Of a stretch of 64,000 nt of DNA, positions 22,322 to 58,811 are shown piece by piece. Position 1 is the first letter of the stretch. Every line of letters starts with the position of its first letter. The translations under genes were made by a program, and so were the position numbers. The notes under the pieces are model-generated. The model was not told the DNA's origin, ran no database searches, and was given only the letters and a program-made list of their open reading frames with translations. This stretch comes from Candidatus Bathyarchaeota archaeon (lineage in GTDB: Archaea; Thermoproteota; Bathyarchaeia; Bathyarchaeales; Bathycorpusculaceae): positions 288,001 through 352,000 of the forward strand of contig CAVYES010000007.1 of the NCBI GenBank assembly GCA_963767735.1, in the 5' to 3' direction.

Positions 22322-24380
22322 CCAACTTCACCTGTATGCGTTTCTTGAAGGAAACCAACAAACCAGTAGCGTCGAATATTTCCAAATGTACCTCAGTTTT
22401 TGGTTTTCTTGCTTTTCCTAAATACAAGTACAGCCCAACTGTAACGATTGCCGCGATGACTACGCCAGTTACTACTCCATAGATTGCTTCTTGAAGTAAA
22501 CTTGACTGCGGTGTAGGGCTATGAGACACTGGCGTGCTGTTTGGGGTTGTTGTGAATACGATTGATATTTGGTGTGTGCTGAAGCTGGTTGTGTACCATA
22601 CGTAGTAGTTGTTGCTGTCTTGGGTGTAGCCTTGGTTTTGGGCAAGTTGGTCGTCGATGTAGATTGTCGGCGATGTTCCGTAAGTTACTGCGCTTATCGG
22701 GATGGTTATGTTGCCAAAGCCAGTTGTGCCACTTTGTCCTGTTACAGTGAAAGAAACCGTTGTTGTTTTGTCTGACTGGTTTGTTGTGATTGTTACGTTG
22801 GACATTTGTGAAATGGTTACATTCCCGCCCAGTATAAGGTCAACAGTTGCGCCATTCTCAGTCGTTGCAGGAACTGTTGCGCTCGCGCTAACAATAACCC
22901 AAACTCCTGATATTGGAAAACTGTCGTAATCACCATAGCCTGCCGAATCGCTTATGTTAAGAGAAATGTCATATGTTCCAGGTGTGGATTCGACGAACGT
23001 AAAGGTTGATGATGTGGCACCTGGAAACGCAACAATAGGTCCTTCTGGCGAACCCCCTACTGAAGTCCACAACTGCGTGTCCCACTGATAAATATATGGC
23101 GGATTTCCAGACGTTGGGTTTGCTGTGATTTCAACCGGTTGATTCACATACGTATATTGAATGAATGACTGCTTAATGCTCATCGATATTCCAGTAACAA
23201 TTCCAATTGGCTTTGGTGGCGGTGTTGGTGTCGGAAAAGGTGTTGGAATTTGAGTTGGCGTAGATGAACCACCAAAAGCATAAACGTTATCGTCATCGGA
23301 GCCTACATACACTATCCCGTTAACGACAGCAGGAGACGACTCAACCATGCCGCCAGTTGGGTAACTCCAGAGTTTGGTGCCGCTTGTAGCGTTCAAGGCA
23401 TAAACGTTATCGTCATCGGAGCCTATGTAAATTACGTTGTCAACAACAGCAGGAGACGAAGTAAACTCGTCCCGGAAAGTGTCAACGTTCCCGATGTTGT
23501 AACTCCAGAGTTCTGCTCCGTTCGCAGCGTTCAAAGCATAAACATAGCCGTTACCTGATAATATGTATACCACATCGTTGACGATAGCAGGAGACGAATC
23601 AACGGGATCGCCAGCAAAGTAACTCCAGAGTTGGTTGCCGCTCGTGGCGTTCAAAGCATAAACGTTACCATCATCCGAGCCTACACACACTACCCCGCCG
23701 ACAACAGCAGGAGATGAGTGAACCTCTCCGTTGGTAGCGTAACACCAGAGCGGGACGCCGTTGGTAGCGTTCAAAGCATAAACGTTACCGTCATCGGAGC
23801 CTACATACACTACCCCGTTCACAACGGCAGGCGACGAGTCAACATAGCCGCTAGTGGTGTAATTCCAGAGTTTGTCGCCGTTAGTAGCGTTCAAAGCATA
23901 AATGTTTCTATTAAATGAGGCTATGTATACAACGCCGTTTAAGACAGCTGGAGACGCCCAAACCCAGTCACTAGTATTGTAATTCCAAAGTTTGACGCCG
24001 TTGGTAGCGTTCAAAGCATAAACGTTACCGTCAAACGAGGCTATGTATACTACGCCGTTGAAGACGGCAGGAGATGAAAAAACATCGTCACCTGTGGTGT
24101 ACTTCCAGAGTTGGATGCCACTTGTAGCGTCCAAAGCATAAACGTTGCCATCCTCGGAACCTATGTAAACTACGCCGTTGACAACAGCGGGAGACGAATA
24201 AACACTGTTAGCTGTGAGGTATTTCCAGACTAAGGTTGGGTAAGGTTGTGGATTGCCTATGCCGACGCCATCGTGAGACGGGTCCGAGCGGAACATTATC
24301 CAATCCGCGTTCGCAAATGGAACCAAAACTAAGCTGAAAAGAAAAATTATGCAAATTAATGCTCCGGCGGTTTTTTTCAT
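22308..24380 (-). CDS. secreted PQQ-type beta-propeller repeat protein with C-terminal anchor
   Basis: 8x SSPAVV.GVVY.GS.D..VYALNAT.G..LW repeats (~120-bp DNA repeats), signal peptide, C-terminal TM. Confidence 0.9.
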   Translation of the reverse strand: MKKTAGALICIIFLFSLVLVPFANADWIMFRSDPSHDGVGIGNPQPYPTLVWKYLTANSVYSSPAVVNGVVYIGSEDGNVYALDATSGIQLWKYTTGDDVFSSPAVFNGVVYIASFDGNVYALNATNGVKLWNYNTSDWVWASPAVLNGVVYIASFNRNIYALNATNGDKLWNYTTSGYVDSSPAVVNGVVYVGSDDGNVYALNATNGVPLWCYATNGEVHSSPAVVGGVVCVGSDDGNVYALNATSGNQLWSYFAGDPVDSSPAIVNDVVYILSGNGYVYALNAANGAELWSYNIGNVDTFRDEFTSSPAVVDNVIYIGSDDDNVYALNATSGTKLWSYPTGGMVESSPAVVNGIVYVGSDDDNVYAFGGSSTPTQIPTPFPTPTPPPKPIGIVTGISMSIKQSFIQYTYVNQPVEITANPTSGNPPYIYQWDTQLWTSVGGSPEGPIVAFPGATSSTFTFVESTPGTYDISLNISDSAGYGDYDSFPISGVWVIVSASATVPATTENGATVDLILGGNVTISQMSNVTITTNQSDKTTTVSFTVTGQSGTTGFGNITIPISAVTYGTSPTIYIDDQLAQNQGYTQDSNNYYVWYTTSFSTHQISIVFTTTPNSTPVSHSPTPQSSLLQEAIYGVVTGVVIAAIVTVGLYLYLGKARKPKTEVHLEIFDATGLLVSFKKRIQVKLGGHG

Positions 24381-40677: not shown

Positions 40678-41679
40678 CTAATCCTTTATGTTACCTACTC
40701 TTAGTTTATCCACGTCGGCGTCGCTTGGAACTGATACGGTTATGGATTTGTTGAGGGTTTCTCTGCCAAAATTCACTTTAACTCCGGCTGTTTTAGCGTC
40801 GGAGTAGTGTGCGGTTAATTTGGCGGCGGTTTCAATGGCTTTTTTGGTTTTAGGCCCTTGCAAAATTGTTATTGGACCAACAATTTCTGGCAGCTCAAAA
40901 TAGTATTCGTCCACTTTTTTTCTAACGGTTAAAAACTTGTTTTCCGCCTCGTTTCTTCCTACAACTATTTTGTTTTTGCCTGCTCTAAAATGCCTGCCAA
41001 CTCGCAGCAAAGCGATATCTGCCATGGAAACGCGTTTTTTATGGGCGAAGAGGTCTCGGATTTTCTTTGCGTATTCTTCGCAGGTTAATAGGCATCCGCC
41101 CGCGGGACAAGGATAATCCTTAATGCTGAATTTCTCTGCAAGCTTGAACTGGGGCTTTCGGGACCTTCCCTGAATATCCAGCAGCTTAGAGCGGTCAACC
41201 AGACCCTTCTTTTCAGCTTCCGTTTCCGGCAATAACCTGGCGGACAGAGGTCTTAGAACCTTGCCCTCCAAACCGCCTTCCTTTTCAATAAGCATCATTG
41301 CAGGGTAATGCTGAGACATGGGACGTTCATCCAAAACTTCGCCTGTAAAAATGAAGGCTGCACCCATCTCTTTTGCGTACTTCTTGGCTTTTTTCATGAG
41401 GAAAATTCTGCAGTCAACGCAGGGATTCATATTCCTGCCATAACCATGCTTGGGATTGCGAAGCATCCGCAAATAATCGTTCCCAGCAGCAACCACTTTC
41501 AACGGCACATTCAACTGTTTAGCGGCATCTACTGCTGCGCAACCGTCTTTTTTGCAGAGACAAAACGGGCTTCTAACGTTAAAGGCAGTTACTTCGATGC
41601 CTTGCTTTAGAATCATCTCTGTAGCAAGAATGCTGTCTAATCCACCTGAAAGTAAACCTAAAGCCTTAACGCGACTCAT
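40678..41679 (-). CDS. PP-loop tRNA sulfurtransferase-like protein (ThiI/MnmA-related)
   Basis: SGGLDS, NPCVDC, GEVL..RPMSQ, PAGGCLLT, GRHFR, VGRNE.EN. Confidence 0.85.
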   Translation of the reverse strand: MSRVKALGLLSGGLDSILATEMILKQGIEVTAFNVRSPFCLCKKDGCAAVDAAKQLNVPLKVVAAGNDYLRMLRNPKHGYGRNMNPCVDCRIFLMKKAKKYAKEMGAAFIFTGEVLDERPMSQHYPAMMLIEKEGGLEGKVLRPLSARLLPETEAEKKGLVDRSKLLDIQGRSRKPQFKLAEKFSIKDYPCPAGGCLLTCEEYAKKIRDLFAHKKRVSMADIALLRVGRHFRAGKNKIVVGRNEAENKFLTVRKKVDEYYFELPEIVGPITILQGPKTKKAIETAAKLTAHYSDAKTAGVKVNFGRETLNKSITVSVPSDADVDKLRVGNIKD

Positions 41680-46734: not shown

Positions 46735-48150
46735 ATGGAACCAAGAATTTACTTTTTTAACACGTTAACGCGTAAGAAAGAAGTTTTTATTCCGTTGGAA
46801 ACGGGCAAAGTGAAAATGTACACTTGCGGCCCGACAGTTTATGATTATGCTCATATCGGGAATTTTCGGGCTTTTTTGTTTGAGGATTTATTGAAGCGTT
46901 GGCTTTTGTACCGAGGCTTCAAAGTTACGCATGTAATGAACCTAACCGATATCGATGACAAAACCATCAAGGGCAGCCAAACACAACAAATACCTCTCAA
47001 GCAGTACACGGATTTCTATGTGAAAGCGTTTTTCGAAGACACCAAAGCCTTAAACATCCAACCAGCCGACGTTTACCCCCGAGCCACTGAGCATATTTCA
47101 GAAATGGTTGCGTTAATCAAGACTTTGATGGCTAAAGGCTTCGGTTACCGAGGAGAAGATGGCTCAATCTACTTTGCTGTATGCAAGTTTCCGGACTATG
47201 GTAAACTTTCAAAAATCAAAATCGCTGATCTTAAGGCAGGTGCTAGAGTATGCCAAGACGAGTATACTAAAGAAGAAGCTCAAGATTTTGCTCTTTGGAA
47301 GACTTGGACGCCTGAAGACGGCGATGTGTTTTGGGAGACGGAGCTTGGCAAAGGCAGACCGGGTTGGCATATAGAATGTAGCGCCATGAGCATGAAGTAT
47401 CTTGGCGAAACCTTTGATATTCACTGCGGCGGGGTGGATAACATGTTTCCGCATCATGAGAACGAGATTGCGCAAAGCGAAGCAGCCACGGGCAAGAAGT
47501 TTGTAAATTACTGGTTGCACAACGAGCATTTGCAGGTTGAAGGCAAAAAAATGTCTAAGCGCTTTGGCAACTTTTACACGCTCCGAGACCTCTTAGCCAA
47601 AGGTTATGATCCGATCACGATTAGGTACCTGCTTACGTCTACTCATTATCGGCAGCAGTTCAACTTCACTTTTGAAGGCTTAGAATCCGCGAAAAGCGCA
47701 ATTGACAGGTTGAAGAATTTTGTTCGACGCTTGCATGAAACAGACGGCAAAGATAGCAAGGGAAAAGTTGCCGCTTTTACTGAAAAACTTGAGACGTGCT
47801 TCGGCGGATCCATGGATGAAGACTTGGACATTGGAACGGCTTTGGCGTCCTTGTTCGATTTCGTACGGGAAATAAACAGTCTACTTGACGCAAACACCGT
47901 AAGCAAGACAGAAGCATCAGATGTTGGCGGTTTAATGATGCGGATAGATGAAATCTTAGGTGTTATCGGCAAAGTTGAAGTGGAAGAAACCTTGCCAGCG
48001 GACATCGACGCATTAGTGCAGAAGCGTGAGGAAGCCCGAAAAGCCAAAAACTGGAAAGAGGCCGACGCGATAAGAGCACAGCTCAAAGCATTGGGCATCG
48101 TTCTTGAGGATACAGCGCAAGGCGTAAGGTGGCATAAAGAAAAAGCTTAG
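46735..48150 (+). CDS. cysS: cysteine--tRNA ligase
   Basis: CGPTVY, HIGN, GRPGWHIECSAM, FPHHENE, KMSK. Confidence 0.97.
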   Translation: MEPRIYFFNTLTRKKEVFIPLETGKVKMYTCGPTVYDYAHIGNFRAFLFEDLLKRWLLYRGFKVTHVMNLTDIDDKTIKGSQTQQIPLKQYTDFYVKAFFEDTKALNIQPADVYPRATEHISEMVALIKTLMAKGFGYRGEDGSIYFAVCKFPDYGKLSKIKIADLKAGARVCQDEYTKEEAQDFALWKTWTPEDGDVFWETELGKGRPGWHIECSAMSMKYLGETFDIHCGGVDNMFPHHENEIAQSEAATGKKFVNYWLHNEHLQVEGKKMSKRFGNFYTLRDLLAKGYDPITIRYLLTSTHYRQQFNFTFEGLESAKSAIDRLKNFVRRLHETDGKDSKGKVAAFTEKLETCFGGSMDEDLDIGTALASLFDFVREINSLLDANTVSKTEASDVGGLMMRIDEILGVIGKVEVEETLPADIDALVQKREEARKAKNWKEADAIRAQLKALGIVLEDTAQGVRWHKEKA

Positions 48151-48941
48151 CTGGTTTTGCCCGCAAAATTCCATTCGGAGGTAGCGTACTTTTCTTTGCA
48201 AAGCTTATTCGCAAGCTCCACCTCGCAAGCGGTTAACTCTCCGGGCTCAAGCTGAATCTTCAGCATTGCTTTAAACCCCTGTTCCAGCGCGGTAGCTACT
48301 GTTTCAGGCATGACGGCGTGGCCTAGTTCGTTTTGGATGCTTGTGATTTTTCGTTTGCCGATGTCTACGGCTTGGCTGCAACTTGCGTTTTTTAGTTTTA
48401 GAAGTTGGAACATTTTTGGTAAATCAACACTCCGCAACACTGTGCCATGCTGCAAAACGATGCCATGGGTGATGGTTTGGCTGCTGCCTGAGATTTTTTT
48501 GCCATTAACGGTCATGTTTGGGCAGTTTTTGGAGTCGCCGCTGCTGAAGTCGGCGGTTATCCCTAAAAGCCTAAGCGCATCCTTTATCGCCTCATAAATC
48601 TTGGAGTAAACAATGGTGATGTCTGCAGTGCCTATGTCTGTTGTTTTGGCAATTACGCCATAAGTGACTTCGCCCTCAAAATCGTGGTAAACGGTTCCTC
48701 CGCCGCTAATCCGCCGAACCATATCAACACCTAACCGTTTGCAAGCATCCAGGTAAACCTCAGCTTCAGGATTCTGGTTCTTGCCAACGCTTACGGCGGA
48801 TGGCTGCCAACGATAAAACCTAAGCGTATTCGGAACCTGCCCAGCTATTCGCGCAGTTAAAATTGCCTCATCAACTGCCATGTTCATGGAAGCATTGTTG
48901 GTTTCAAGGGGGAGTAAACGCCAAGTATCCATACGATTCAA
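48147..48941 (-). CDS. lplA: lipoate--protein ligase A family protein
   Basis: NMAVDEA, RRISGGGTVYHD, GKKISGS, LQHGT. Confidence 0.9.
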   Translation of the reverse strand: MNRMDTWRLLPLETNNASMNMAVDEAILTARIAGQVPNTLRFYRWQPSAVSVGKNQNPEAEVYLDACKRLGVDMVRRISGGGTVYHDFEGEVTYGVIAKTTDIGTADITIVYSKIYEAIKDALRLLGITADFSSGDSKNCPNMTVNGKKISGSSQTITHGIVLQHGTVLRSVDLPKMFQLLKLKNASCSQAVDIGKRKITSIQNELGHAVMPETVATALEQGFKAMLKIQLEPGELTACEVELANKLCKEKYATSEWNFAGKTS

Positions 48942-49111
48942 TCCTTTTCTTATGGAAATTTGAGTTGCGCTTAAAACTGTTATGCAAATGACGATGCAGT
49001 GAAGATATATTCATATGCGAGTTTTTAAACAAGTAAATGTTGGGATTATAGAATGGTTGCTCGCAAATTCACCGTTTTACTGGAGCCTGCAGAAGAAGGC
49101 GGACTGAAATT

Positions 49112-49514
49112 ATGAACAAAATCTATCTATTGTTAGTTATAGATGACTGTAGAGACATTGACCTTGAAGAGTATTCCAAAACAGGGCATGTACACCGTAT
49201 TAAAGGACCCATAAAAGGCTGGATATTAAATGAGGAAATAGGAATTGACACTATTAGCGGTTTCAAATTGACCGAAGAAGAAGCTAAAAGTTGGGCAGTG
49301 GAAAGATGCAAACTTGGCGAAGAATTAACCCGACAAACCCGTTTCTGAAAAAATTGTTCCTTTTGAAAAACTAATCTATATTGACCATCAAACCGTTCTG
49401 GTTGAACCTGACAGATGGGAAAAACATGTTAAATTCAAAGGATACAGAAGAGAAGATTGTGAACTGCCTGTGTTTGGCTATATAGAACTACTTGAACGGC
49501 CAGAAAAACAATGA
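49112..49514 (+). pseudogene. hypothetical protein with +1 frameshift in a C-run at ~49329
   Basis: ORF continues in an alternative frame to TGA at 49514; preceded by a 20-codon HicB-like stub (49053-49115). Confidence 0.5.
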
Positions 49515-49843
49515 ACAAAGACAATAGAACATAATTCCGTTCTTCTTGTTGCGATTTCCAATAGCAAGTTTCTGAGTTCTAGTAAAAAGAATAGAAGGAT
49601 GTCACAACATATTGGGCACTCAAGTGGAAGCTTCTTTTGCTGATAGATTTGTTCAACTGTGCATGTGAAGCAGAAAAATTACACGTGTAATAATTTAAAC
49701 TAAAACTTAAACGAATCCCTCGTCAAAAACCAAACTAAATAAGTCAAACGGATATCGATAACTTGAAGCATTATTTTTGCTTTAAGCTTCACTCAAGCGT
49801 TCCACCGCATATAGGACATTTCAATGGAAGTTTGTTTTGTATT

Positions 49844-50074
49844 CTATTGAGACGCCCTTCGCCAGCGAAGTTGAATATGTACTCTCTTGATGTAGCCCTG
49901 TTTTTCTAATGAAATTAAGCTGCGGTGAACTGAAGAATATTCCGGTGATTTGTACTCTACAATTTTGCCAAAAATCATCTCGGCAATTTCCTTGGTTGTC
50001 ATGTCAGGTTTTATCTCTAGTATTTCCAAAATTCGTTTTTGGTTTTTAGAGAGACCAGCCAAATCCTGCATCAC
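49844..50074 (-). CDS. winged-helix DNA-binding protein
   Basis: LSKNQKRILEIL..TTKEIAE..VHRSLISLEKQGYI. Confidence 0.8.
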   Translation of the reverse strand: MMQDLAGLSKNQKRILEILEIKPDMTTKEIAEMIFGKIVEYKSPEYSSVHRSLISLEKQGYIKRVHIQLRWRRASQ

Positions 50075-50240
50075 TCTTTTGAGAGCTTAAATTGTTCTAT
50101 CAAAATTAAATCTTTAACCAGCGCTATAACCGCAGTTCTGATAGATAGAATATATCAAGACATGAAATATAAGTTAAGTCAATAAAAAAGGGAAACACTT
50201 GAAAATCCGCACTTCTTAAGAAAATGTGACTATCAAATTT

Positions 50241-50569
50241 TCGTTACTTTCCTTTACGTTTTATTACTTTTCCTTACGTTTCCTTACTTTCTGTTACTTT
50301 TCCTTACTCAACCTGCAAACGTTTCAAAGCCTAAACGAAAAAACCAACCCAAAATAACCAGAACAGTCAGGCAGCACTTACAAATGTTATATCCTCTTCA
50401 AAAAGGCGCAAAAGGACACAGAAATACATTCTGCTACACTTCGCTACGTTCTGCTACATTTGTGTACGCAATTATTTGCGATTAAACGCGATTATTCTCG
50501 ATTATTTGCGATTATTCTAGATTCAACCTGCAAGCAATTTAAGCCCCAAACAAAAAAAACAACCCAAAA
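50241..50569. repeat. composite repeat locus 1: three 10-bp-period arrays and two conserved ~46-bp leaders
   Basis: TTAC x7 (50241-50308), leader 50309-50354, TAC x5 (50421-50470), ATTA x5 (50471-50523), leader 50524-50569. Confidence 0.9.
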
Positions 50570-50690
50570 CACAAATTTTCCGCAAGACACTCCCTATCTA
50601 CTTTTTGTTGACGCAATCAGACACAAAAAGAGCAAATAATAAAGCCTTAAAACCTGAGTCTGCATTCTAAAAGGAAAAGAGGCAAAGTAA

Positions 50691-51572
50691 TTGAAGGTTA
50701 TCTGTGGTCCAGCGTCTAAGGAGCTTGCTGAAGCTGTTTCAGCTCTGACTGGCTTCCAAAACATTCCTGTTGCATCAAAGGTTTTTCCTGACGGCGAATC
50801 ATATGTCCGTTTAGAAGGCAGCGTACAAAGCGAAAACGTCGCAATTGTGCAGACAACATGTCCCCCTCAGCAGGATGGGCGGCTTTTTCAGTTAGCGTTC
50901 ATGGCTGACGCGGCAAAGAGAGGCGGCGCCGTCAAAGTAACCGCGGTCGTCCCGTACCTGGCTTATGCACGTCAAGACAAGATGTTTCTATCAGGCGAAG
51001 GCATAAGCGTAGAAACCGTCGCACGCATGCTCAAAGCCGCGGGAATCGACGAGTTATTAACCATTAACATTCACTCGGAGCAGGCGCTGGAGCAGTTTCC
51101 GTTTCCATCCAAAACAGTGAGCGCCATACCGCTTTTGGCAAAGTATTTTGTGGACAAGGGCTTCAAAGGCGCCTTCGCATTGTCGCCTGACAAGGGTGCA
51201 ATGTACATTGCTAAGCAAGCACAGGAGGTTCTTGGCGGCAAGGCTGGGCATCTGGATAAGCAGCGTGACCGCTACAATGGACAAACCAAACAGACCGCTG
51301 AAGGCTTAAACGTTAAAGACCAAACCGTAATCATCTTCGACGATATCGTCAGCACAGGCGGCACGATTGTGGGAGCGGCAAAAATCCTTCGCGAACAGGG
51401 CGCTAAACATGTTTTCTGCGCTTGCGTGCACGGCTTGCTCATTGGCGACGCACAAAAACGTATCCTTGATGCGGGCGTAGAGGAAATCGTAGGCACCGAC
51501 AGCGTCCCTGGCAGTGTGAGCAAGGTTTCGTTGGCGCCGGTGTTAAGCCAAGAACTAAGGGCGCAAAAATAG
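50691..51572 (+). CDS. prs: ribose-phosphate pyrophosphokinase
   Basis: FPDGE, PYLAYARQD, SPDKGA, DDIVSTGGT. Confidence 0.95.
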   Translation: MKVICGPASKELAEAVSALTGFQNIPVASKVFPDGESYVRLEGSVQSENVAIVQTTCPPQQDGRLFQLAFMADAAKRGGAVKVTAVVPYLAYARQDKMFLSGEGISVETVARMLKAAGIDELLTINIHSEQALEQFPFPSKTVSAIPLLAKYFVDKGFKGAFALSPDKGAMYIAKQAQEVLGGKAGHLDKQRDRYNGQTKQTAEGLNVKDQTVIIFDDIVSTGGTIVGAAKILREQGAKHVFCACVHGLLIGDAQKRILDAGVEEIVGTDSVPGSVSKVSLAPVLSQELRAQK

Positions 51573-52621
51573 TGGCAAAACTGTTTTTTCTTCTGTCAGG
51601 CGAAAACGAGTCGCTGCCTGCCGCTGAAGTTAAAGCGATACTGGAAGCCGAAGGCAACCCATACTCGAATGCAGAGGAGTTCGACCAGGTTCTGCGGTTA
51701 GACGCAGAAGTGGACAGCGTACAAGCCGTTCAAGTCCGTTCGGCGTACACGCGGGTTTGTGCACTGGAGCTTTTTGTTTCAAACGCGAACCTAACTGACA
51801 TAGCTAAGGTGGCTTCCGAAACAGACTTCAAAGCAGTGCTTAAAGGCGGCGAAAGCTTTGCTGTGAGAATAAACCGCATAAAAAACTACGCTGACCAAGC
51901 TTTGAATACGATGGTGCTTGAAGGCAAACTGGGCAAGCAAATCCTAAATGGCACCGAAGGCACAAAAGTCAGCCTCAAGAACCCAGATAAAACCTTTCTA
52001 GGCATAATCACAGACGAAAAACTTGTTTTAGGCTTAAAACTTACAGATATAACCTCCAAAACCTTCTCGGAACGCAGACCCCGCAAAAAACCCTTCTTTC
52101 ACCCATCTGCAATGCCCTCGAAGATGGCGCGTTGCATGGTGAACTTAGCGCATGGAAAAGCCGAAGCATTGGTGCTTGACCCGTTTTGCGGCACTGGCAC
52201 TTCGCTTATTGAAGCCGCCTACATTGGCTGCAGAGCTGTGGGTGTAGATGCTCAGAAACGAATGATTAAGGGTACTAGGAAAAACCTGCGTTTCTTCAAC
52301 ATAACTCCTGAAGGGCTGGTTTTGGCTGACGCACGCCACTTGCCCCTCATAAAGGTTGATTGTGTCGTTACTGACCCGCCTTATGGCCGCTCATCGAGCA
52401 CGCTTAGGTCAACTACTAAGCAGCTGGTGCAAGATGTTTTGGTTTCAGCGCATGACTTGTTGGGAGTGGGGCAACGGATTTGTATTGCCTCTCCTAAAAC
52501 ATTAAACATTAAAGCGTTAGGCGTTGCGTTGGGCTACAGGCATGTGGAGTCCCATTTCGCCTACGTGCATAGAACGTTAACAAGGGAAATCGCAGTATTC
52601 GAGAAGGTGCAACAACGATGA
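51572..52621 (+). CDS. trm11: tRNA (guanine-N2)-methyltransferase Trm11/TrmG10 (THUMP + MTase)
   Basis: LSGEN, KPFFHP, DPFCGTG, TDPPYG. Confidence 0.88.
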   Translation: MAKLFFLLSGENESLPAAEVKAILEAEGNPYSNAEEFDQVLRLDAEVDSVQAVQVRSAYTRVCALELFVSNANLTDIAKVASETDFKAVLKGGESFAVRINRIKNYADQALNTMVLEGKLGKQILNGTEGTKVSLKNPDKTFLGIITDEKLVLGLKLTDITSKTFSERRPRKKPFFHPSAMPSKMARCMVNLAHGKAEALVLDPFCGTGTSLIEAAYIGCRAVGVDAQKRMIKGTRKNLRFFNITPEGLVLADARHLPLIKVDCVVTDPPYGRSSSTLRSTTKQLVQDVLVSAHDLLGVGQRICIASPKTLNIKALGVALGYRHVESHFAYVHRTLTREIAVFEKVQQR

Positions 52622-53541
52622 GTATTCGTGTGGTGTTTTTGGGAACAAGCGGCAGCGTTCCAACCTTAAAGCGGAGCTTGCCATCCGTAGTTGTCCAATG
52701 CCCAAAGGAGCTATGGATGTTTGACTGCGGCGAAAATACACAGCGGCAAATGATGCAGGCAAAAGTAAGCTTCCATAAAAAACTAAATGTTCTCCTCACT
52801 CACCTGCATGGAGACCACGTGTTGGGGTTGCCAGGCGTTTTGCAGACTATGGCACTGATGGACCGCAAAGAGCCAGTCGCCGTTTATGGACCGCCCGGGA
52901 TTAAGGATTTTCTGGTTTGCACTCAAGAAACCCTAAACTTCGGCTTAACCTTCCAAGTTGAAATCACCGAGATTCTAAGCGAGGGCACAATTATAGATGA
53001 AGAAGACTACACCCTAACAGCCGCCAAGTCTAACCATGCCGTGAACAGTTACGCCTACGCGTTTGAGGAAAAACCGCGTCCTGGAAAGTTTTACCCCAAA
53101 AAAGCCCAAGCACTCGGTGTTATCAAAGGTGAATTATGGTCCAAGCTTCAGAGCGGAGAAGAAATCACGCTGCCAGACGGCAGAGCAGTTAAGCCAGGCA
53201 ACGTTATGGGGCCGCCTCGAGCTGGACGCAAAATAGTTTACACAGGCGACACCCGACCGTTCGAAGCGTTTGCAAAGTTTGCCGCAGACGCAGACCTGGT
53301 TATTCACGAGAGCACCTTTGACGATTCATTAGCTGAGAAAGCAGCATTAGATGGGCATTCAACGCCAAGCCAAGCGGCGCAGGAAGCGAAGGCATCTAAT
53401 GCGAAACGGCTGGTTTTAACGCATATTAGCGCAAGGTATCCTGATGCAACTTTGCTTTTGGAGCAGGCCAAAAAAATCTTTGCTAATACCGTGGTTGCTG
53501 AGGATTTTATGGAGCTGGAACTGCCTCTTAACGAGAGCTAA
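52618..53541 (+). CDS. rnz: ribonuclease Z
   Basis: FLGTS, DCGE, HLHGDH, YTGDT, HEST, HST, THISARY. Confidence 0.95.
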   Translation: MSIRVVFLGTSGSVPTLKRSLPSVVVQCPKELWMFDCGENTQRQMMQAKVSFHKKLNVLLTHLHGDHVLGLPGVLQTMALMDRKEPVAVYGPPGIKDFLVCTQETLNFGLTFQVEITEILSEGTIIDEEDYTLTAAKSNHAVNSYAYAFEEKPRPGKFYPKKAQALGVIKGELWSKLQSGEEITLPDGRAVKPGNVMGPPRAGRKIVYTGDTRPFEAFAKFAADADLVIHESTFDDSLAEKAALDGHSTPSQAAQEAKASNAKRLVLTHISARYPDATLLLEQAKKIFANTVVAEDFMELELPLNES

Positions 53542-54320
53542 GCTAAGAGCTGTTTTAGTTTTTTGATGCTTTCGGGAACGTTTGTTGTGGATTCGATGAT
53601 TACGGATTTGTCGTATCCCATTTTCTTTAAGGTTTCTGCGAACGAGTTATAGTCGATTTTGCCTTGGCCTATGCCGAGATGTTGATCGTCGGAGCCGTCG
53701 TTGTCGCTGGCATGGATGTGGACGATTTTGTCGGTTAGCAATTTGAAGAAGGGTTCAATTTGACCCTCCAGGTTAGCGTGCCCAATGTCCAAGACGATGC
53801 CGACAGGCAAGTTTGTTTCCCTGTAGAAACGAGCAAACTCTTCAGGTTTACTCATAAAAAAATAGTATTTAGCCGGCAAATTCTCAAGCGCAATGTTTAA
53901 GCCATATTCTTCCGCCGACTCATAGAGCTCTTCTATGCTTTGGTTGTTTTGTTTCCAGTCGGCGCCAGGGTAGAATTGCCCGATGCCAGTTTTTGCTCCC
54001 GGATGAAAAACCCAAACCTTCGCATCCATTGCGGTGGCGAAAGCCATGGATTGCTTGAGCCGCTTCATTGAAGCAGCAAGCATGGATTTGGAGGGTGATG
54101 CAATGTTGATGTCGGCAAAAGGAGCGTGCAGAGAATACTCTAATTCGTAAGATTTTGCGGCTTCCTTTAGGGTGGCAACGCGTTTTTTGTCAAGTTCATA
54201 CGTCCCGTCATCTACAATTTCTATGGTCCGCGTATCCATACTGCCTAAACGTTTAACCATCCGATTGAACGGCTCACCTAGGCAATAAAGCATCGAAATG
54301 CCAACCTTAGCTTCGGACAT
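53538..54320 (-). CDS. sugar phosphate isomerase/epimerase (xylose isomerase-like TIM barrel)
   Basis: HAPF.DIN, FHPG, LEN, DIGHA, HIHASDNDG..DQH. Confidence 0.88.
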   Translation of the reverse strand: MSEAKVGISMLYCLGEPFNRMVKRLGSMDTRTIEIVDDGTYELDKKRVATLKEAAKSYELEYSLHAPFADINIASPSKSMLAASMKRLKQSMAFATAMDAKVWVFHPGAKTGIGQFYPGADWKQNNQSIEELYESAEEYGLNIALENLPAKYYFFMSKPEEFARFYRETNLPVGIVLDIGHANLEGQIEPFFKLLTDKIVHIHASDNDGSDDQHLGIGQGKIDYNSFAETLKKMGYDKSVIIESTTNVPESIKKLKQLLA

Positions 54321-54610
54321 ACAGCAACTGCCTCGTTTATTTGATTGATTCGTGGGTTTAGAGTTTAAAAACAGCTTAATAACTTAATTGGAATAAGCAA
54401 AAAGCGAATGCTACAAAAAATCTGCTCTTAATTGATAGATGAGCGTATTTACTTTTTCCAACGTTAACTAGGAATGAAAATGCGACGGTTTTTATTCATT
54501 TTTGAGTAAAAAAAATTGCTGAACAATAGAGTCTACAAGCTGACTTCATGTTCTTATGAGTCAGAGGCATAGGTGATTCCTGCTTTTGAATCTTGTACTT
54601 TAGGTTTTTT

Positions 54611-54895
54611 GGTCGAATTGGGTCGGAAAGAGTCGGAAGCAGTCGAAACAGGTCAGATACAGTCGAACAGAGTCGCAACCTGCAAACACCTTAAAGCCTA
54701 AAACAAAAAAGCAACCATAAACAACAAGAACACACAGCGTCCGAAATAGCGGATAATCGCTTGAAGGGTTTAAAGGAAATAAAAATACATTTTGCTACAT
54801 TTCGGTACGTTTTGCTACATTCTAATATATTCTGATACATTTCTGTACGCAACCTACAAGCAATTAAAGCCCTGAAAACGAAAACCAACCCAAAA
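54611..54895. repeat. composite repeat locus 2: two 10-bp-period arrays and two conserved leaders
   Basis: RGTC(G) x7 (54611-54675), leader 54676-54721, TAC x7 with one TAT (54781-54849), leader 54850-54895. Confidence 0.9.
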
Positions 54896-54989
54896 CACAA
54901 AGACAAAAATTTTGCAGCAAAAATAATCAACACCTACTGGTAGATAGCTGAGTGAGCAAACAAATGTGCAGAAACGAAACTTGATAAAA

Positions 54990-55466
54990 CTATGGTTTTC
55001 TGTACAGATAGATTGTGTGAGAAGGATAGCCTAACTGGGGATTCTCGCAGAAATTTTCAACTTTCTCGGGTTGCCAACCGATAATCTCGTAATCATGCGA
55101 AACTACACGTGCGCCTTTTTTAAGGTCGCTTTCAAGTTTAGGCCTGATTTTCTCATTTGCACTTGTTGTCAAATACAAGTAAACTACATCAGCGGAACTT
55201 AAGTTGATGTCAAACATGTTACTGTTCATTATGGTTACTCTGTCCTCAAGACCATTCTCATGAATGGTACCCATCGCTTTTTTCGCCAAATCCTCACGCA
55301 GTTCAATGCCGACGCCCCGGGCACCGAAAGTTTTCGCCGCCATGATTACGGTTCTACCATCTCCAGAACCCATATCAAACAGCACTTCGCCAGCCTTCAA
55401 ATCAGCCAACTTTAGCATATATTCTACAACACTGTTTGGACTTGGAACGAAAGGAGCAATAAACAT
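54990..55466 (-). CDS. class I SAM-dependent methyltransferase (protein lysine MTase-like)
   Basis: APFVPSP, DMGSGDGR, GIE, ADVVYLYL, RVVSHDY. Confidence 0.88.
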   Translation of the reverse strand: MFIAPFVPSPNSVVEYMLKLADLKAGEVLFDMGSGDGRTVIMAAKTFGARGVGIELREDLAKKAMGTIHENGLEDRVTIMNSNMFDINLSSADVVYLYLTTSANEKIRPKLESDLKKGARVVSHDYEIIGWQPEKVENFCENPQLGYPSHTIYLYRKP

Positions 55467-55496
55467 TTCCAGACTTCACCAATGTTATTTATGCTT

Positions 55497-55847
55497 TTAT
55501 GCCACGTAAGCGTCCTTTTTCGGATTTGGTCTTCTAGCTTCTCCGCATTTTGCACAGCTTTGAGCGCATAACTCAAGGTATTTTTCTTCATCTGCTGAAC
55601 CAACGGCGTTAGCTGCTTTTGTGCAGAGTTCACTTGGTTCAGAGCAGCCTTCTTCTTTGCATAGTTTCGAAATGTATTGGCATACTTCTTGCACATCTTT
55701 GGGTTCTAAGATAGCCCTATTGGTGCGAACAATTAAACATAGCTCCCGCGCCATGACACAAGTTTTAACGTATTTAATGCGTTCAAGAACTTCACTGCGT
55801 AAATTCTTTCGACTTATTTCCACGCTTCTTAAATCTCCTACTGGCAC
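55497..55847 (-). CDS. Cys-rich hypothetical protein
   Basis: 116 aa, 9 Cys, co-oriented with the methyltransferase. Confidence 0.7.
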   Translation of the reverse strand: MPVGDLRSVEISRKNLRSEVLERIKYVKTCVMARELCLIVRTNRAILEPKDVQEVCQYISKLCKEEGCSEPSELCTKAANAVGSADEEKYLELCAQSCAKCGEARRPNPKKDAYVA

Positions 55848-55937
55848 TTAAGCAAATAAGCAGATAAGCAGTCTAGGTTTAAATAGTTGCTGTTATTCCG
55901 CATAAACATACAATTTAAAAAAAGAAAACTAAATCAT

Positions 55938-58811
55938 TTATGAAAAACGTTTACTTAGTGCTTTACGTTCAGCCTCCAAAACCAACTCGTAAAATCGATC
56001 CGAAAGCTTAGATTCCTTCTCTAAAACGGCTGCAATTTCCACTGTTGAAACCCGTCGAGCGCTCAATGCCACTGCCGCCGCTTTACCATACTTTTCAATT
56101 AATTCAGCAGTATGCTTAGCTTGCAACCGCATCTTTTCCTCATCCTTAGCCAAGCGTCCCTTCTTCTCAATTAACGGCAAAGCCTTCTCCTCATCCACCT
56201 TCAACAATCCAATGGCAAAAGACCCACATCTGGGACACTTGGGCCTATCAGGCAAATCTTTGATGCAAATCGTCTCCATGTAATCCCAACAGCAAGTGCA
56301 AATGAAATTGCCTGTTTCATTTAGCAATCGCGCCTTGGCTGCCGCAACAAGCACAGCGCGCATTTTCTCGGGCGGAATAAGATCAGTTTTCATGCTTACC
56401 CGCTCGATACCCACGCGAGCAACTGGAGTTGCATCCCCGCCTGTCGCAACAACCTGTAAGCCTACGTCGCCGTCATGAATCCGTTTAAGCACCATGACAA
56501 GCCCATCGGCATCAAGGTCTTTAGAGAAAACCTCCTTCAACCCCTCTTCATAGATCAGGGTACCCTCAAAACTCGAAATCAGCTTCTGGATGCTAATGTT
56601 GCTAAAGTCAGCCCACTTTTTTAGTGCACCAAAACGCCTCGCTACCTGTATTACTCGTCTTTTGAATAAGCCAGTCTTCACAGTTGACCTAGTCAACGTG
56701 TCCTTAACCGATTGGGAACTCATCCCTTTCAACTCATCAAAAACTTCAACCAGCCTCTCAGCACTCATACTGCCCATCGTTTGGACAAAAATGCGGTAAG
56801 GGTCATGCTGAACCACGATACCATAACCAAGCTTGTCAGACAACACTTCCCCAAGGAACTGCGCTAAGGCACGATTAATTAGCGAACCAAAATTAGAATG
56901 AATAATAACAAATTCACCCCAATCCTCAACAACAATCCGCGTAGAAGTAGGAACCACAAAGCCGCAGTTCACTTGCTCAACCGTCTCCGCCAAAGCATGC
57001 AAAATCGTCTCCGCATCGGCTGCATAACGCCCACTAAGCAAAGCACTTATCTGCTCTGGCGTAAGCCCACTATGCATTTTTTCTTCCGCGAATCCGCGTA
57101 TTTCCGCCAGCTCCTGTGCGATTTCATATGGAACAGGAATTTCTTCGCCTATCCAACTGGGAATTGAGCCAGTTGGGTCATCGACAGGGCGGACATAAAC
57201 TTTGTCTTCTGTAGCATGGATTATTTGCCATGGGCTGCCTCGTATAATAAATTTTGTTCCAGGCTTGCCGTACTCCGCCATGAACGCTTCATCTAATACC
57301 CCGATGGATGTGTCAGATGACTCGTCAATTACAAGAAACTGTTTCTCCTCAGGAATCATTGATAAATTATCGAAATAGTATTCAAACAAAGCCTTAGAAC
57401 GCTGAGGCTTCAAAGCGACTTGGTCCTCAAAGGATACCCATGCTAAACGCGGAAAACGATCATACATGTACCTAAAAGCTTTTCCAACGTCTTCGATGGT
57501 TAAATTCTCAAAAGGCGCAGCGTTACGTGCTAATTCTAAAACACCGCTAAATTCTAATCGCCTATTCTTCAGCATCAACCCAGCAATCTGATGAACCAAA
57601 ACATCGTAGGGTTTGTCTGGAATTTGAAGTGGCTCCAACTCTTCATTGAGAGCTCTTCTGGCAATAACTAAGGCTTCAAGCGTATCATCCGAATCCATGC
57701 CGATTATCACGCCTTCGGCAACATCTCCGTAAGTGTGGCCTGCCCGTCCCACGCGTTGTATGAGTCTAGTCACTTGACGTGGACTCATATATTGAATGAC
57801 AAAATCTATTCGCCCAATATCTATTCCCAATTCAAGACTGCTGGTGGCGATTAAACCCTTAAGCTCACCTCGTTTTAAACCGTTTTCAGCAGCAATCCTT
57901 GAAACCTTAGCTAAAGAGCCATGGTGGATCGATATGGGAAAATCAATGTCCCAAACCTTAAATCTAGAAGCCAAAACTTCCGAAATTGAACGCGTATTTG
58001 TAAATAAAAGAACGGATTTTCGTTTACTCATGTAATCGCGGATAATACGCAGTCTGGCTGCCACCTCTGGATGCGTGTAAATTTTCGATGCAAACCTGAC
58101 ATCTTCCTCAGTTGGCTTCGGATAGATTACTTGCAGCTTCACCATTTTGGCAACTGGAACACGGATGATTTCTACGGGGCGTTTATTGCCGACAAGGAAA
58201 TGGGCGACTTTTTCTGGGCTGCCTATCGTAGCGGATAAACCGATCATTTGGAAGTCTTTTCCGATTAGGCTTCTGATCCGTTCCAGTGCCAATGACAGCT
58301 GGCTTCCGCGTTTGCTGTCAGCTAACTCATGTACTTCATCAATTACTACCCATCGTAAGCTTTGTAGGTGTTGACGCAAAATCCAGCCAGAAAGTATAGC
58401 TTGTAGTGTTTCAGGAGTCGTTATAAGAATATCAGGCGGACTTCGGGATTGACGAGTTCTTTCTTTTGATTCAGTGTCACCATGCCGAACGGCGAGTTTT
58501 ATATCTAAGCTGTTGCACCACCATTGAAGCCGCTCAAGCAAGTCTCTATTTAGAGCCCGCAACGGAGTGATGTATAGCACTTTTATGCCTGGCGTTTTGG
58601 GTTCCTTAAGAAGCATGCTTAGCACAGGCAGGAAAGCAGCTTCTGTTTTGCCTGTAGCTGTAGGTGAAATTAACAGGACATTTTTGCCCTCGAGGATTTT
58701 TGGTATTGTTTTTTCTTGAGGTTCAGTTGGTTTAGAGAATCCTTTCTGTTCAACGAGCCTTCGAACTGGCTTCACAAGCATTTCAAAAGCATTCTCAGAA
58801 GTTGCTTGCAA
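55938..58811 (-). CDS. lhr: Lhr-family SF2 helicase
   Basis: PTATGKT, ITPLRAL, TTPE, DEVH, SAT, HHGSL, QRVGRAGH, C-terminal zinc ribbon. Confidence 0.93.
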   Translation of the reverse strand: MQATSENAFEMLVKPVRRLVEQKGFSKPTEPQEKTIPKILEGKNVLLISPTATGKTEAAFLPVLSMLLKEPKTPGIKVLYITPLRALNRDLLERLQWWCNSLDIKLAVRHGDTESKERTRQSRSPPDILITTPETLQAILSGWILRQHLQSLRWVVIDEVHELADSKRGSQLSLALERIRSLIGKDFQMIGLSATIGSPEKVAHFLVGNKRPVEIIRVPVAKMVKLQVIYPKPTEEDVRFASKIYTHPEVAARLRIIRDYMSKRKSVLLFTNTRSISEVLASRFKVWDIDFPISIHHGSLAKVSRIAAENGLKRGELKGLIATSSLELGIDIGRIDFVIQYMSPRQVTRLIQRVGRAGHTYGDVAEGVIIGMDSDDTLEALVIARRALNEELEPLQIPDKPYDVLVHQIAGLMLKNRRLEFSGVLELARNAAPFENLTIEDVGKAFRYMYDRFPRLAWVSFEDQVALKPQRSKALFEYYFDNLSMIPEEKQFLVIDESSDTSIGVLDEAFMAEYGKPGTKFIIRGSPWQIIHATEDKVYVRPVDDPTGSIPSWIGEEIPVPYEIAQELAEIRGFAEEKMHSGLTPEQISALLSGRYAADAETILHALAETVEQVNCGFVVPTSTRIVVEDWGEFVIIHSNFGSLINRALAQFLGEVLSDKLGYGIVVQHDPYRIFVQTMGSMSAERLVEVFDELKGMSSQSVKDTLTRSTVKTGLFKRRVIQVARRFGALKKWADFSNISIQKLISSFEGTLIYEEGLKEVFSKDLDADGLVMVLKRIHDGDVGLQVVATGGDATPVARVGIERVSMKTDLIPPEKMRAVLVAAAKARLLNETGNFICTCCWDYMETICIKDLPDRPKCPRCGSFAIGLLKVDEEKALPLIEKKGRLAKDEEKMRLQAKHTAELIEKYGKAAAVALSARRVSTVEIAAVLEKESKLSDRFYELVLEAERKALSKRFS

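Follow-up and report, generated by a model that had tools for sequence, protein, structure and literature searches.

Helically phased arrays beside a repeated Bathyarchaeia motif as the probable control region of a small barrel protein family

Modular intergenic repeats of high copy number, such as the bacterial interspersed mosaic elements and repetitive extragenic palindromes (BIME/REP), the pneumococcal BOX and the neisserial Correia elements, are restricted to particular lineages, are in some cases promoter-like and break assemblies. Small DNA-binding barrel proteins encoded behind their own operator and regulating their own synthesis are represented by the AbrB/MazE/VapB-type antitoxins. 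In the 64,000-nucleotide (nt) stretch of a Candidatus Bathyarchaeota genome analyzed here (the window, G000:C7:288001-352000; the source genome, G000, comprises 3.04 Mb in 10 contigs, has 43% G+C and is 94.9% complete), a conserved motif occurs four times, each time directly beside an array of short units with a period of 10 base pairs (bp). Motif and array are probably the control region of a family of putative barrel regulators of 92 amino acids (aa) resembling PhS018 and, more distantly, MraZ. In M. genitalium, four GTG(G/T) boxes six nucleotides apart are each occupied by one MraZ subunit, with Lys13, Arg15 and Arg86 in the major groove, and cooperative binding represses the protein's own promoter, as described in the available part of PMC12957436. 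The corresponding site in Mollicutes is given as (AAAGTGKN3)3 in the available part of PMC5282649. PhS018 is presented, in the available part of PMC4333400, as an uncharacterized archaeal relative of the AbrB-like swapped-hairpin barrel and as a predicted DNA binder.

Like the units found here, the cores of the MraZ operator (9r4j, 9sz7) have about 4 bp, are arranged head-to-tail at an exact period of 10 bp and lie beside the protein's own gene. Both proteins are built from two halves of an AbrB-like cradle-loop barrel, and in both operators the core GT follows an A-rich spacer, the units of the archaeal arrays reading aaaNGTnn on the gene strand. However, the family described here does not belong to MraZ (no Pfam match, Z-score of 5.3), has 92 instead of about 140-150 aa, appears to lack the ring-forming helices, as judged from this length difference and the secondary structure of the model, has no mraW or fts gene downstream and resides in an archaeal host. 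Moreover, up to about 17 boxes are present instead of 3-4, up to 15 matches with different words are found per genome, and a 64-nt motif is shared between the loci and has dozens of gene-less copies. PhS018 (2glw) has the same length of 92 aa and the same single-chain duplicated barrel, but the sequence likeness is marginal (18-19% identity) and a DNA target is not mentioned in the available part of PMC4333400. Unlike in the AbrB/MazE/VapB-type antitoxin systems, no conserved toxin gene is found downstream in the 33 loci examined and the putative operators are long one-directional arrays rather than short palindromes. In contrast to BIME/REP, BOX and Correia repeats, the element appears traceable to the control region of a specific gene family and bears helically phased boxes.

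The 64-nt motif and its arrays

Within the window, the 12-mer CAACCTRCAARC has four exact matches, all on the + strand and located at the first positions of the four motif copies (Table 1), as well as five matches with one mismatch, amounting to nine matches against 1.41 expected, a count that none of 100 shuffles got to. A profile search recovers only the four exact sites as motif copies; the one-mismatch sites are without profile match and were rejected. At all four places the sequence is as the original prediction had described it, with the CAACC end of the motif abutting a 10-bp array. Tandem Repeats Finder reports period-10 arrays at 50238-50308 (7.1 copies), 50425-50460 (3.6), 50467-50517 (5.1), 50471-50523 (5.3), 54622-54665 (4.4) and 54786-54821 (3.6). 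In the 70 nt ahead of each motif copy, lag-10 self-identity amounts to 0.72, 0.65, 0.62 and 0.63, compared to a mean of 0.256 and a 99.9th percentile of 0.60 for random 70-mers of the source genome. The predicted motif length of about 46 bp, however, has to be extended, as alignment gives 63-64 nt from CAACCTGCAAAC to ...GCAACCCAAAACANNAAGAACAAAA, with the strongest conservation at AAAAAAGCAACCCAAAAC. Likewise, the period of 10 applies to all four arrays, whereas the supposed single word per array does not, the array before position 50524 being composite.

With the motif profile, 103 matches at E-values up to 0.01 are obtained in the whole source genome, and for 87 of them the best lag of the 70 nt ahead of the motif is 10 (55/103 reach the 99.9th percentile), which confirms the observation and extends it well beyond the window. 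The 94 better copies group into 64 clusters (39 single, 20 double and 5 triple), with uniform orientation within each cluster. Of 120 genomes of the genus, a group of soil Bathyarchaeia, 83 contain the motif according to a sequence-only covariance model, with at least 44 matches in about 26, and a 10-bp array stands beside the motif in 64 of 79 matches from relatives. When 151 genomes representing 79 genera of the class were sampled, only this genus yielded the motif. A pattern scan of public contigs returned 29 stretches, about half of them chance matches in bacteria; where the pattern matches exactly, the title of the public record names Candidatus Bathyarchaeota or Bathyarchaeia. No description of such arrays or of the motif was found in the main text of open-access papers.

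In agreement with the original prediction, the arrays do not represent clustered regularly interspaced short palindromic repeats (CRISPR), as the 10-bp units are without spacers and no cas-like neighbours are present among the annotated or clustered flanking open reading frames (ORFs), and they are not coding. An alternative use of the motif as terminator for convergent genes was dropped, because no more than 35 of the 94 copies are directed at a gene's 3' end. Also rejected was AAGCCYTAAA as a general promoter word, found at 326 sites compared to 153 for the reversed control, mostly intragenic and without positional peak at gene starts. Rfam 15 gives no covariance-model match at E-values up to 5 for window positions 48000-57000 and only two chance-level matches for eight other loci.

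The repeated words of the arrays differ but are not unrelated, as most of them have AC in a fixed register with the motif. A and C occupy positions -3/-2, -13/-12 and so on up to -63/-62 from the motif start (79 copies here and 61 in relatives), A in 46-90% and C in 56-93% of the copies, most strongly near the motif and followed by a T-rich run. This AC on the + strand of the motif corresponds to a GT on the other strand. Within arrays, units are identical at 0.76-0.94 for xAC plus the next 2 nt versus 0.42-0.52 in the 3-nt linker, and between arrays AC alone is shared (0.64-0.66), the flanking core positions being near random at about 0.27; all arrays, gene-less ones included, were pooled for these values. 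Each array hence keeps a class-specific core of 5-6 bp per helical turn, which is the signature of a sequence-specific reader, since descent alone would not spare particular phases. Further words in relatives are GAGACG, GTGACG, TTTGC, TAGACTT and TGTCAAA, among others.

The linked protein family and its predicted fold

By clustering all ORFs within 700 nt of the 64 motif clusters, one recurrent family stood out, with a length of about 92 aa and the pattern MPLT.KV.F...N.VQVPKLIRWQFK...KDGRI.IP...EITLEP. In the source genome, tblastn finds 14 loci of this family, every one at most 253 nt from a motif, and in 13 of them the motif is located upstream of the gene on the opposite strand. Two intact genes adjoin arrays of words that are also present in the window, namely G000:C4:170402-170677 with TTAC/GTAA, the word class of array 1, and G000:C5:317911-318186 with GTCG/CGAC, the word of array 3. 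The other two intact genes are located at G000:C4:302699-302974, with the word GCACAA, and at C5:73684-73965, with AACC. The 56 database relatives of the family are all unnamed or designated as hypothetical. A profile of 30 members detects the family in 70 of the 120 genus genomes; motif and protein are both present in 69, the protein only in one (G003), the motif only in 14 and neither in 36, which is a tally over related, non-independent genomes.

Across the genus, the order motif, array and start codon holds in 73 of 75 loci. The motif lies on the strand opposite to the gene, at most 260 nt upstream of it, and its end is separated from the ATG by a median of 95 nt (range 33-196). On the gene strand, a T-rich stretch is followed by ...GGGTTGCTTTTTT..(17 nt)..GTTTGCAGGTTG, then by (C/A)GTnn+5 boxes in register, a short stretch and the ATG. 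Complete units have 3 to about 17 boxes at exactly 10 bp and a further 5-45 nt before the ATG. A conserved partner (toxin) gene directly downstream of the regulator was not found in the 33 loci examined. One subfamily is fixed behind a carB-like gene in six genomes, its box word varying between CGAC, CGTT and GTAC. Homologues of the family in nine other genera are without the 64-nt motif.

The AlphaFold2 model (predicted local distance difference test 83.7, predicted template modelling score 0.72) has a duplicated strand-strand-helix-strand barrel. Top match in Foldseek is PhS018 of Pyrococcus horikoshii (2glw; E-value 1.2e-4, template modelling score 0.71), with cryo-electron microscopy complexes of MraZ and DNA ranking behind at E-values of about 1e-2. 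Structural comparison by VIA-align gives a Z-score of 12.1 for PhS018 (root mean square deviation 1.9 over 84 of 92 residues), 10.4 for PG0164 and 5.3 for MraZ. In both comparisons, PhS018 stands well clear of the unrelated entries that follow. On the basis of this model, the family is predicted to be a PhS018-like single-chain duplicated barrel of about 92 residues.

Protein sequence and array word vary together. Proteins with CNK(V/I)Q(V/I)PK..RWQFKLEP are encoded behind AGTCAAAAAA in 10 of 11 loci, the eleventh reading AGTCA.AAAA, and those with SER(I/V)QIPKLII.EFKLE behind AGACA or ATACA in 4/4. In the RWRFK subfamily, position 18 is K with CGAC in seven of eight loci and T, A or N with CGTT in nine of ten. 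When pooled, residue 18 is R or K mostly with GTC or GAC, T or A with GTTT/GTT. in 7/9 and L with GTG in 2/2. In a weak profile alignment (E-value 1.3), this position aligns with Arg15 of MraZ for the first half and with Arg86 for the second half, both of which contact bases according to the available part of PMC12957436. The covariation looks as expected of co-evolving regulator-operator pairs but is no proof of binding.

A platform for cooperative protein binding had been among the predicted functions of the arrays. This is the favoured reading, with the members of the PhS018/AbrB-like 92-aa family as the candidate binding proteins instead of the nearby winged helix-turn-helix (wHTH) protein originally proposed (49844-50074, - strand). 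The latter, having weak wHTH/MarR-type Pfam matches, was rejected as reader, as its homologues are also present in genomes where the motif was not found (for example G003 and G064) and are unlinked to the motif across genomes. A promoter-like box of its own, reading aaagatttaatttt on the - strand, precedes the start of the wHTH gene by about 40 nt (window 50085-50130). Due to this box and a T6 run between the gene and array 1, the wHTH gene is probably not driven from the module.

Proposed mode of action and alternatives

Motif and array most likely represent a promoter plus a row of candidate binding boxes that would work by analogy with the MraZ operator without involving a member of the MraZ family. 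The motif learned from 32 tRNA upstream regions of the source genome reads AAAGCTTAATATTA. Among 72 gene-linked motifs, 26 carry a matching AAAGCTTAAAT-like box on the gene strand, which ends about 13 nt ahead of the first array box. Farther up on this strand, a T5+ run is found in 55/72, and a GCAGGTTG-like motif end is present in 60/72. Within 100 nt beyond the motif, A5+ runs outnumber T5+ runs on the + strand (64 versus 23), which on the gene strand may be read as T-runs ahead of the promoter. Visual reading of the regions upstream of the homologues in the nine other genera reveals a box resembling the transcription factor B recognition element and TATA box (BRE/TATA), for example AAAGCTTAAATC, then a few GT-type boxes and the start codon. 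This fits an older state of promoter, boxes and gene, from which the long motif, the long arrays and the gene-less copies would have developed in this genus. Firing may also be divergent, from one invariant A6/T6 box. A count of ORFs that start no more than 330 nt past the array (38 of 64 clusters versus 66% at random positions) is uninformative, and a scan for bacterial sigma-70 promoters and hairpin terminators, a model not applicable to archaea, only yielded shuffle-level counts.

In the proposed mechanism, the promoter within the motif would fire toward the array, with transcription starting at the first box or slightly within it. Each box would be bound by one protein molecule, all on one face of the helix, and cooperative binding of neighbouring molecules would shut off their own promoter, as MraZ does on four GTG boxes. 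Paralogues would have diverged together with their box words, resulting in many separate regulator-operator pairs in the genus. Transcription coming in from outside is probably stopped by the T-runs that precede the promoter. The unit has multiplied in the genus, and most copies, including all four in the window, have probably lost the gene. Of the predicted promoter for short repeat RNAs, a promoter reading into the array appears most likely, but the transcript of a complete unit would continue into the regulator gene; only from gene-less copies would it be a short array-bearing RNA. In the window, the TTAC and GTCG arrays could be bound by the regulators encoded at G000:C4:170402 and C5:317911, whereas the CTAC/CGATTA arrays are without an intact cognate gene in the assembly.

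Several observations weigh against a promoter-operator unit of this kind. The promoter assignment is weak and its direction is the weakest link. The CTTAAAT box is confined to the 26 of 72 gene-linked motifs, and the tRNA-promoter matrix gives a mean best score of 4.8 bits on the gene strand of gene-linked loci versus 5.4 on the opposite one; for all motifs, 5.0 bits are reached on the + and 3.9 on the - strand, with random 64-mers at 2.4 (90th percentile 6.3). Standard BRE/TATA elements do not account for the stretch of strongest conservation in the motif (GGGTTGCTTTTTT when read on the gene strand), and a Shine-Dalgarno-like (GGAG-like) word precedes the ATG in only 33 of 72 gene-linked loci. 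Outside the genus, arrays are short and the lag-10 values are modest, 0.38-0.62 as best of many windows. At the protein level, the family profile matches PhS018 only at an E-value of 0.15 (residues 8-71) and the MraZ chain at 1.3, and Pfam gives no match at E-values up to 1 for three of four family proteins and a chance-level fn3_3 match (0.13) for the fourth. Covariation is also expected from the co-inheritance of neighbours and, because gene and array are adjacent, may reflect few independent events. Moreover, only 4 of the 14 gene copies in the source genome are intact, the other 10 being truncated or broken, and about 50 of the 64 clusters are without regulator gene. Seven word classes (TTGAC, GATTA, GTCCTT, CACC, GGATAT, AACGC and CTACAT) have no intact cognate gene in the 94.9%-complete assembly. 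Finally, the orientation of clusters is near random, with the downstream gene co-oriented in 38/64 and the upstream gene divergent in 33/64.

The scarcity of intact genes is also what would be found if the window copies and most other gene-less copies were dead remnants of regulator cassettes, or a repeat resembling miniature inverted-repeat transposable elements (MITE), spread by recombination or transposition. This explanation is tenable, though short of probable. It is favoured by the missing regulator gene beside all four window copies, the broken genes and near-random orientation just mentioned, the rearranged DNA around both window clusters, the presence of the prs-locus module in only 2 of 12 genomes, the many matches at contig ends in fragmented assemblies and one 260-bp family bounded by GCGCGC. 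Pure decay, however, would leave unexplained that the box cores are kept in gene-less arrays as well, that class-specific tails are kept in the gene-less modules of one class and that the TTAC and GTCG words have intact cognate regulators; transposase, terminal inverted repeats and target duplications were not consistently found. A promoter firing on the + strand, away from the array, with the arrays serving as upstream activator or repressor sites for prs, small non-coding RNAs and others, is considered unlikely. The middle of the motif (CAAGCCCTAAAC) does resemble the boxes found ahead of tRNA-Ala, tRNA-Pro and prs, the + strand gives a slightly higher matrix score, a co-oriented downstream ORF of at least 90 aa is present for 59 of 94 copies, and two conserved non-coding tails adjoin the motif on this strand, in 10 and 5 copies. 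Yet, 35/94 copies face a convergent gene from its 3' side, the nearest co-oriented starts are at least about 75-300 nt away, prs has its own conserved promoter irrespective of the module (see below), and some species, such as G019 with CGCCCCAAACGC, have a motif middle that is not A/T-rich. In addition, the consistently attached gene, in 73/75 loci, is on the other side.

Most units consist of a G/C-containing core and a T- or A-tract of 4-5 nt, in 10-bp phase over 60-70 bp, and phased A/T-tracts are a classic recipe for curved DNA or a positioning sequence. A purely structural role, with the T-tracts bending the DNA or positioning archaeal histones by the promoter without any specific reader, is nevertheless highly improbable, as bending does not need a class-specific core of 5-6 bp kept within arrays, the strict linkage to one protein family would be left unexplained and tract-less words such as GAGACG and GTGACG exist. 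Somewhat less improbable, but still quite doubtful, is a function of the arrays as RNA, either as repeats in the 5' untranslated region or as short array RNAs that bind a protein or factor for translation control or sequestration. If the promoter reading is right, the array is the transcribed leader of the regulator mRNA, and T-runs after gene-less units could end a transcript of 130-170 nt. On the other hand, an exact 10-nt period in fixed register with the motif suits the DNA helix but would be without evident meaning for RNA, T5-T7 runs on either strand of some arrays would tend to stop archaeal transcription, and the related proteins of the MraZ, AbrB and MazE class bind double-stranded DNA, according to the available parts of PMC12957436 and PMC4333400. 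Hardly credible, finally, is the addition of units beside the motif by a dedicated writing process akin to CRISPR adaptation, which the original prediction had entertained and for which the start of all arrays in register at one motif end might speak. There are no unique spacers, and no associated enzyme gene was found among the neighbours. The unit adjoining the motif is a fixed variant common to all copies of a class, with the expansion of perfect units elsewhere in the array, away from the motif, and whole modules are copied with unit order kept. The number of units varies by whole 10-bp steps, as in five otherwise identical modules with 2, 3 or 4 GGATAT units, and a GTCCTT array at G000:C3 ~40860-40950 has at least eight perfect TCCTTGTCCT units away from the motif, which looks like recent slippage. 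Such whole-unit changes and perfect-repeat expansions are ordinary slippage.

If motif and array are the control region of the 92-aa family, an archaeal family lacking annotation, and indirectly also the PhS018 fold, would for the first time be placed in a functional context. The structure of PhS018 dates from 2006, and no function is given for it in the available part of PMC4333400. Such a control region would suggest that the mode of MraZ, one small barrel per helical turn on 4-bp boxes, is also used in archaea. Compact repressors that are orthogonal to one another could be derived from the many regulator-word pairs, for which a candidate specificity residue is at hand. Besides, the element explains a high-copy repeat that fragments Bathyarchaeia assemblies and would show a gene control region multiplying into dozens of gene-less copies. 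A more far-reaching picture, which we regard as rather unlikely, is that of self-propagating cassettes of promoter, operator and regulator that move into intergenic hot spots, with fast co-diversification of regulators and words (at least 20 words in the genus, residue 18 serving as a simple recognition position), gene-less copies buffering the regulators as decoys or RNA sources, and a network of orthogonal pairs on a shared, possibly bidirectional 64-nt core.

The window copies and their surroundings

The features of both window clusters are listed in Table 1. None of the four copies has a regulator gene beside it. The composite module of array 2 is found at other sites of the source genome with identical unit order, and arrays of its word class there have no adjoining regulator gene save for one short remnant. 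At the orthologous site of motif copy 2 in G052, the same motif and tail are present, whereas the array word differs (ATCTTTC instead of CGATTA).

Table 1. Motif copies, arrays and associated features in the window.
Feature	Position	Strand	Description
hicB-like gene, 5' stump	49045..49101	+	cut where the inserted block begins; full gene in relatives
Degenerate motif remnant	49707..49745	+	end of the 640-bp repeat; aligned to the twin copy
Array 1	50241..50308	-	about 7 boxes, period 10; TTAC on +, GTAA on the predicted functional strand
Motif copy 1	50309..50372	-	profile 44.8 bits; - strand end ...GTTTGCAGGTTG abuts the array
Array 2	50424..50523	-	composite, period 10: about 4 CTAC units, then about 5 CGATTA units
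Motif copy 2	50524..50587	-	profile 33.6 bits; carries GGGGCTTAAATTGCTTGCAGGTTG on the - strand
prs promoter-like box ATAAAGCCTTAAAACC	50639..50654	+	downstream of the modules, independent of them
Array 3	54598..54675	-	about 7 GTCG boxes (CGAC on the - strand), period 10
Motif copy 3	54676..54739	-	profile 31.8 bits
Array 4	54786..54849	-	about 6 (C/G/A)TAC boxes, period 10
Motif copy 4	54850..54913	-	profile 20.5 bits; most diverged of the four

The first window cluster is part of a block (49102-~50625) standing in place of the 3' portion of a hicB-like gene. In relatives (L087, L092, L093, L088), the full gene is present between a lipoate-ligase gene and prs, and the block therefore represents inserted or rearranged DNA. 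Among the 12 genomes compared, G052 is the sole relative sharing a module at the prs locus. The box ahead of prs stands about 45 nt before the start codon in all 11 orthologous loci examined, 10 of them without module. Upstream of prs, relatives (L083, L084, L085, L086) have a hot spot of small toxin-antitoxin-like genes differing between species (RelE/ParE-like, UPF0175-like and HicB-like, as named from reading translations).

The block opens with a 640-bp segment (49102-49743) that has a 97%-identical twin at G000:C7:142551-143191. The twin runs into a recognizable motif and a GCACAA array, and both copies end in a degraded motif. Matches of 76-89% to this segment are found in G019, G076 (two copies), G058 and G014. 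The segment, which may be a small mobile cassette, holds a 78-aa ORF (49112-49348) without Pfam match.

In the second window cluster (54320-54990), two modules take the place of a gene of about 170 aa with CxxC motifs, which is present on the - strand between TIM-barrel and methyltransferase genes in five of five close relatives but not in the source genome. Filled and empty sites, when compared, are rearranged rather than clean insertions. One 260-bp module family (5 copies) is flanked by GCGCGC on both sides, whereas the other families are without clear ends, and neither transposase nor terminal inverted repeats or target duplications were found consistently at these modules.

On the + strand, some motif copies are followed by one of two conserved non-coding tails that both end with GCGCGC; 10 copies have a tail of about 67 nt (for example G000 C6:517176-517245, L094) and 5 copies a tail of about 105 nt (for example C7:378430-378595, L095). 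The tails have no Rfam match and their indels are not multiples of three; hence, the idea of small peptides (MAT...) encoded after the motif on this strand was dropped. A further repeat of about 110 nt (76-100% identity) is located at G000:C6:516864-516972 and at about 12 other places, at the distal end of several TTGAC arrays and also alone, and is absent from the Rfam matches for locus L094. Elsewhere in the window, at 23498-24229, a tandem repeat with a period of 120 (6.1 copies, 73% matches) probably encodes a repeated protein domain.

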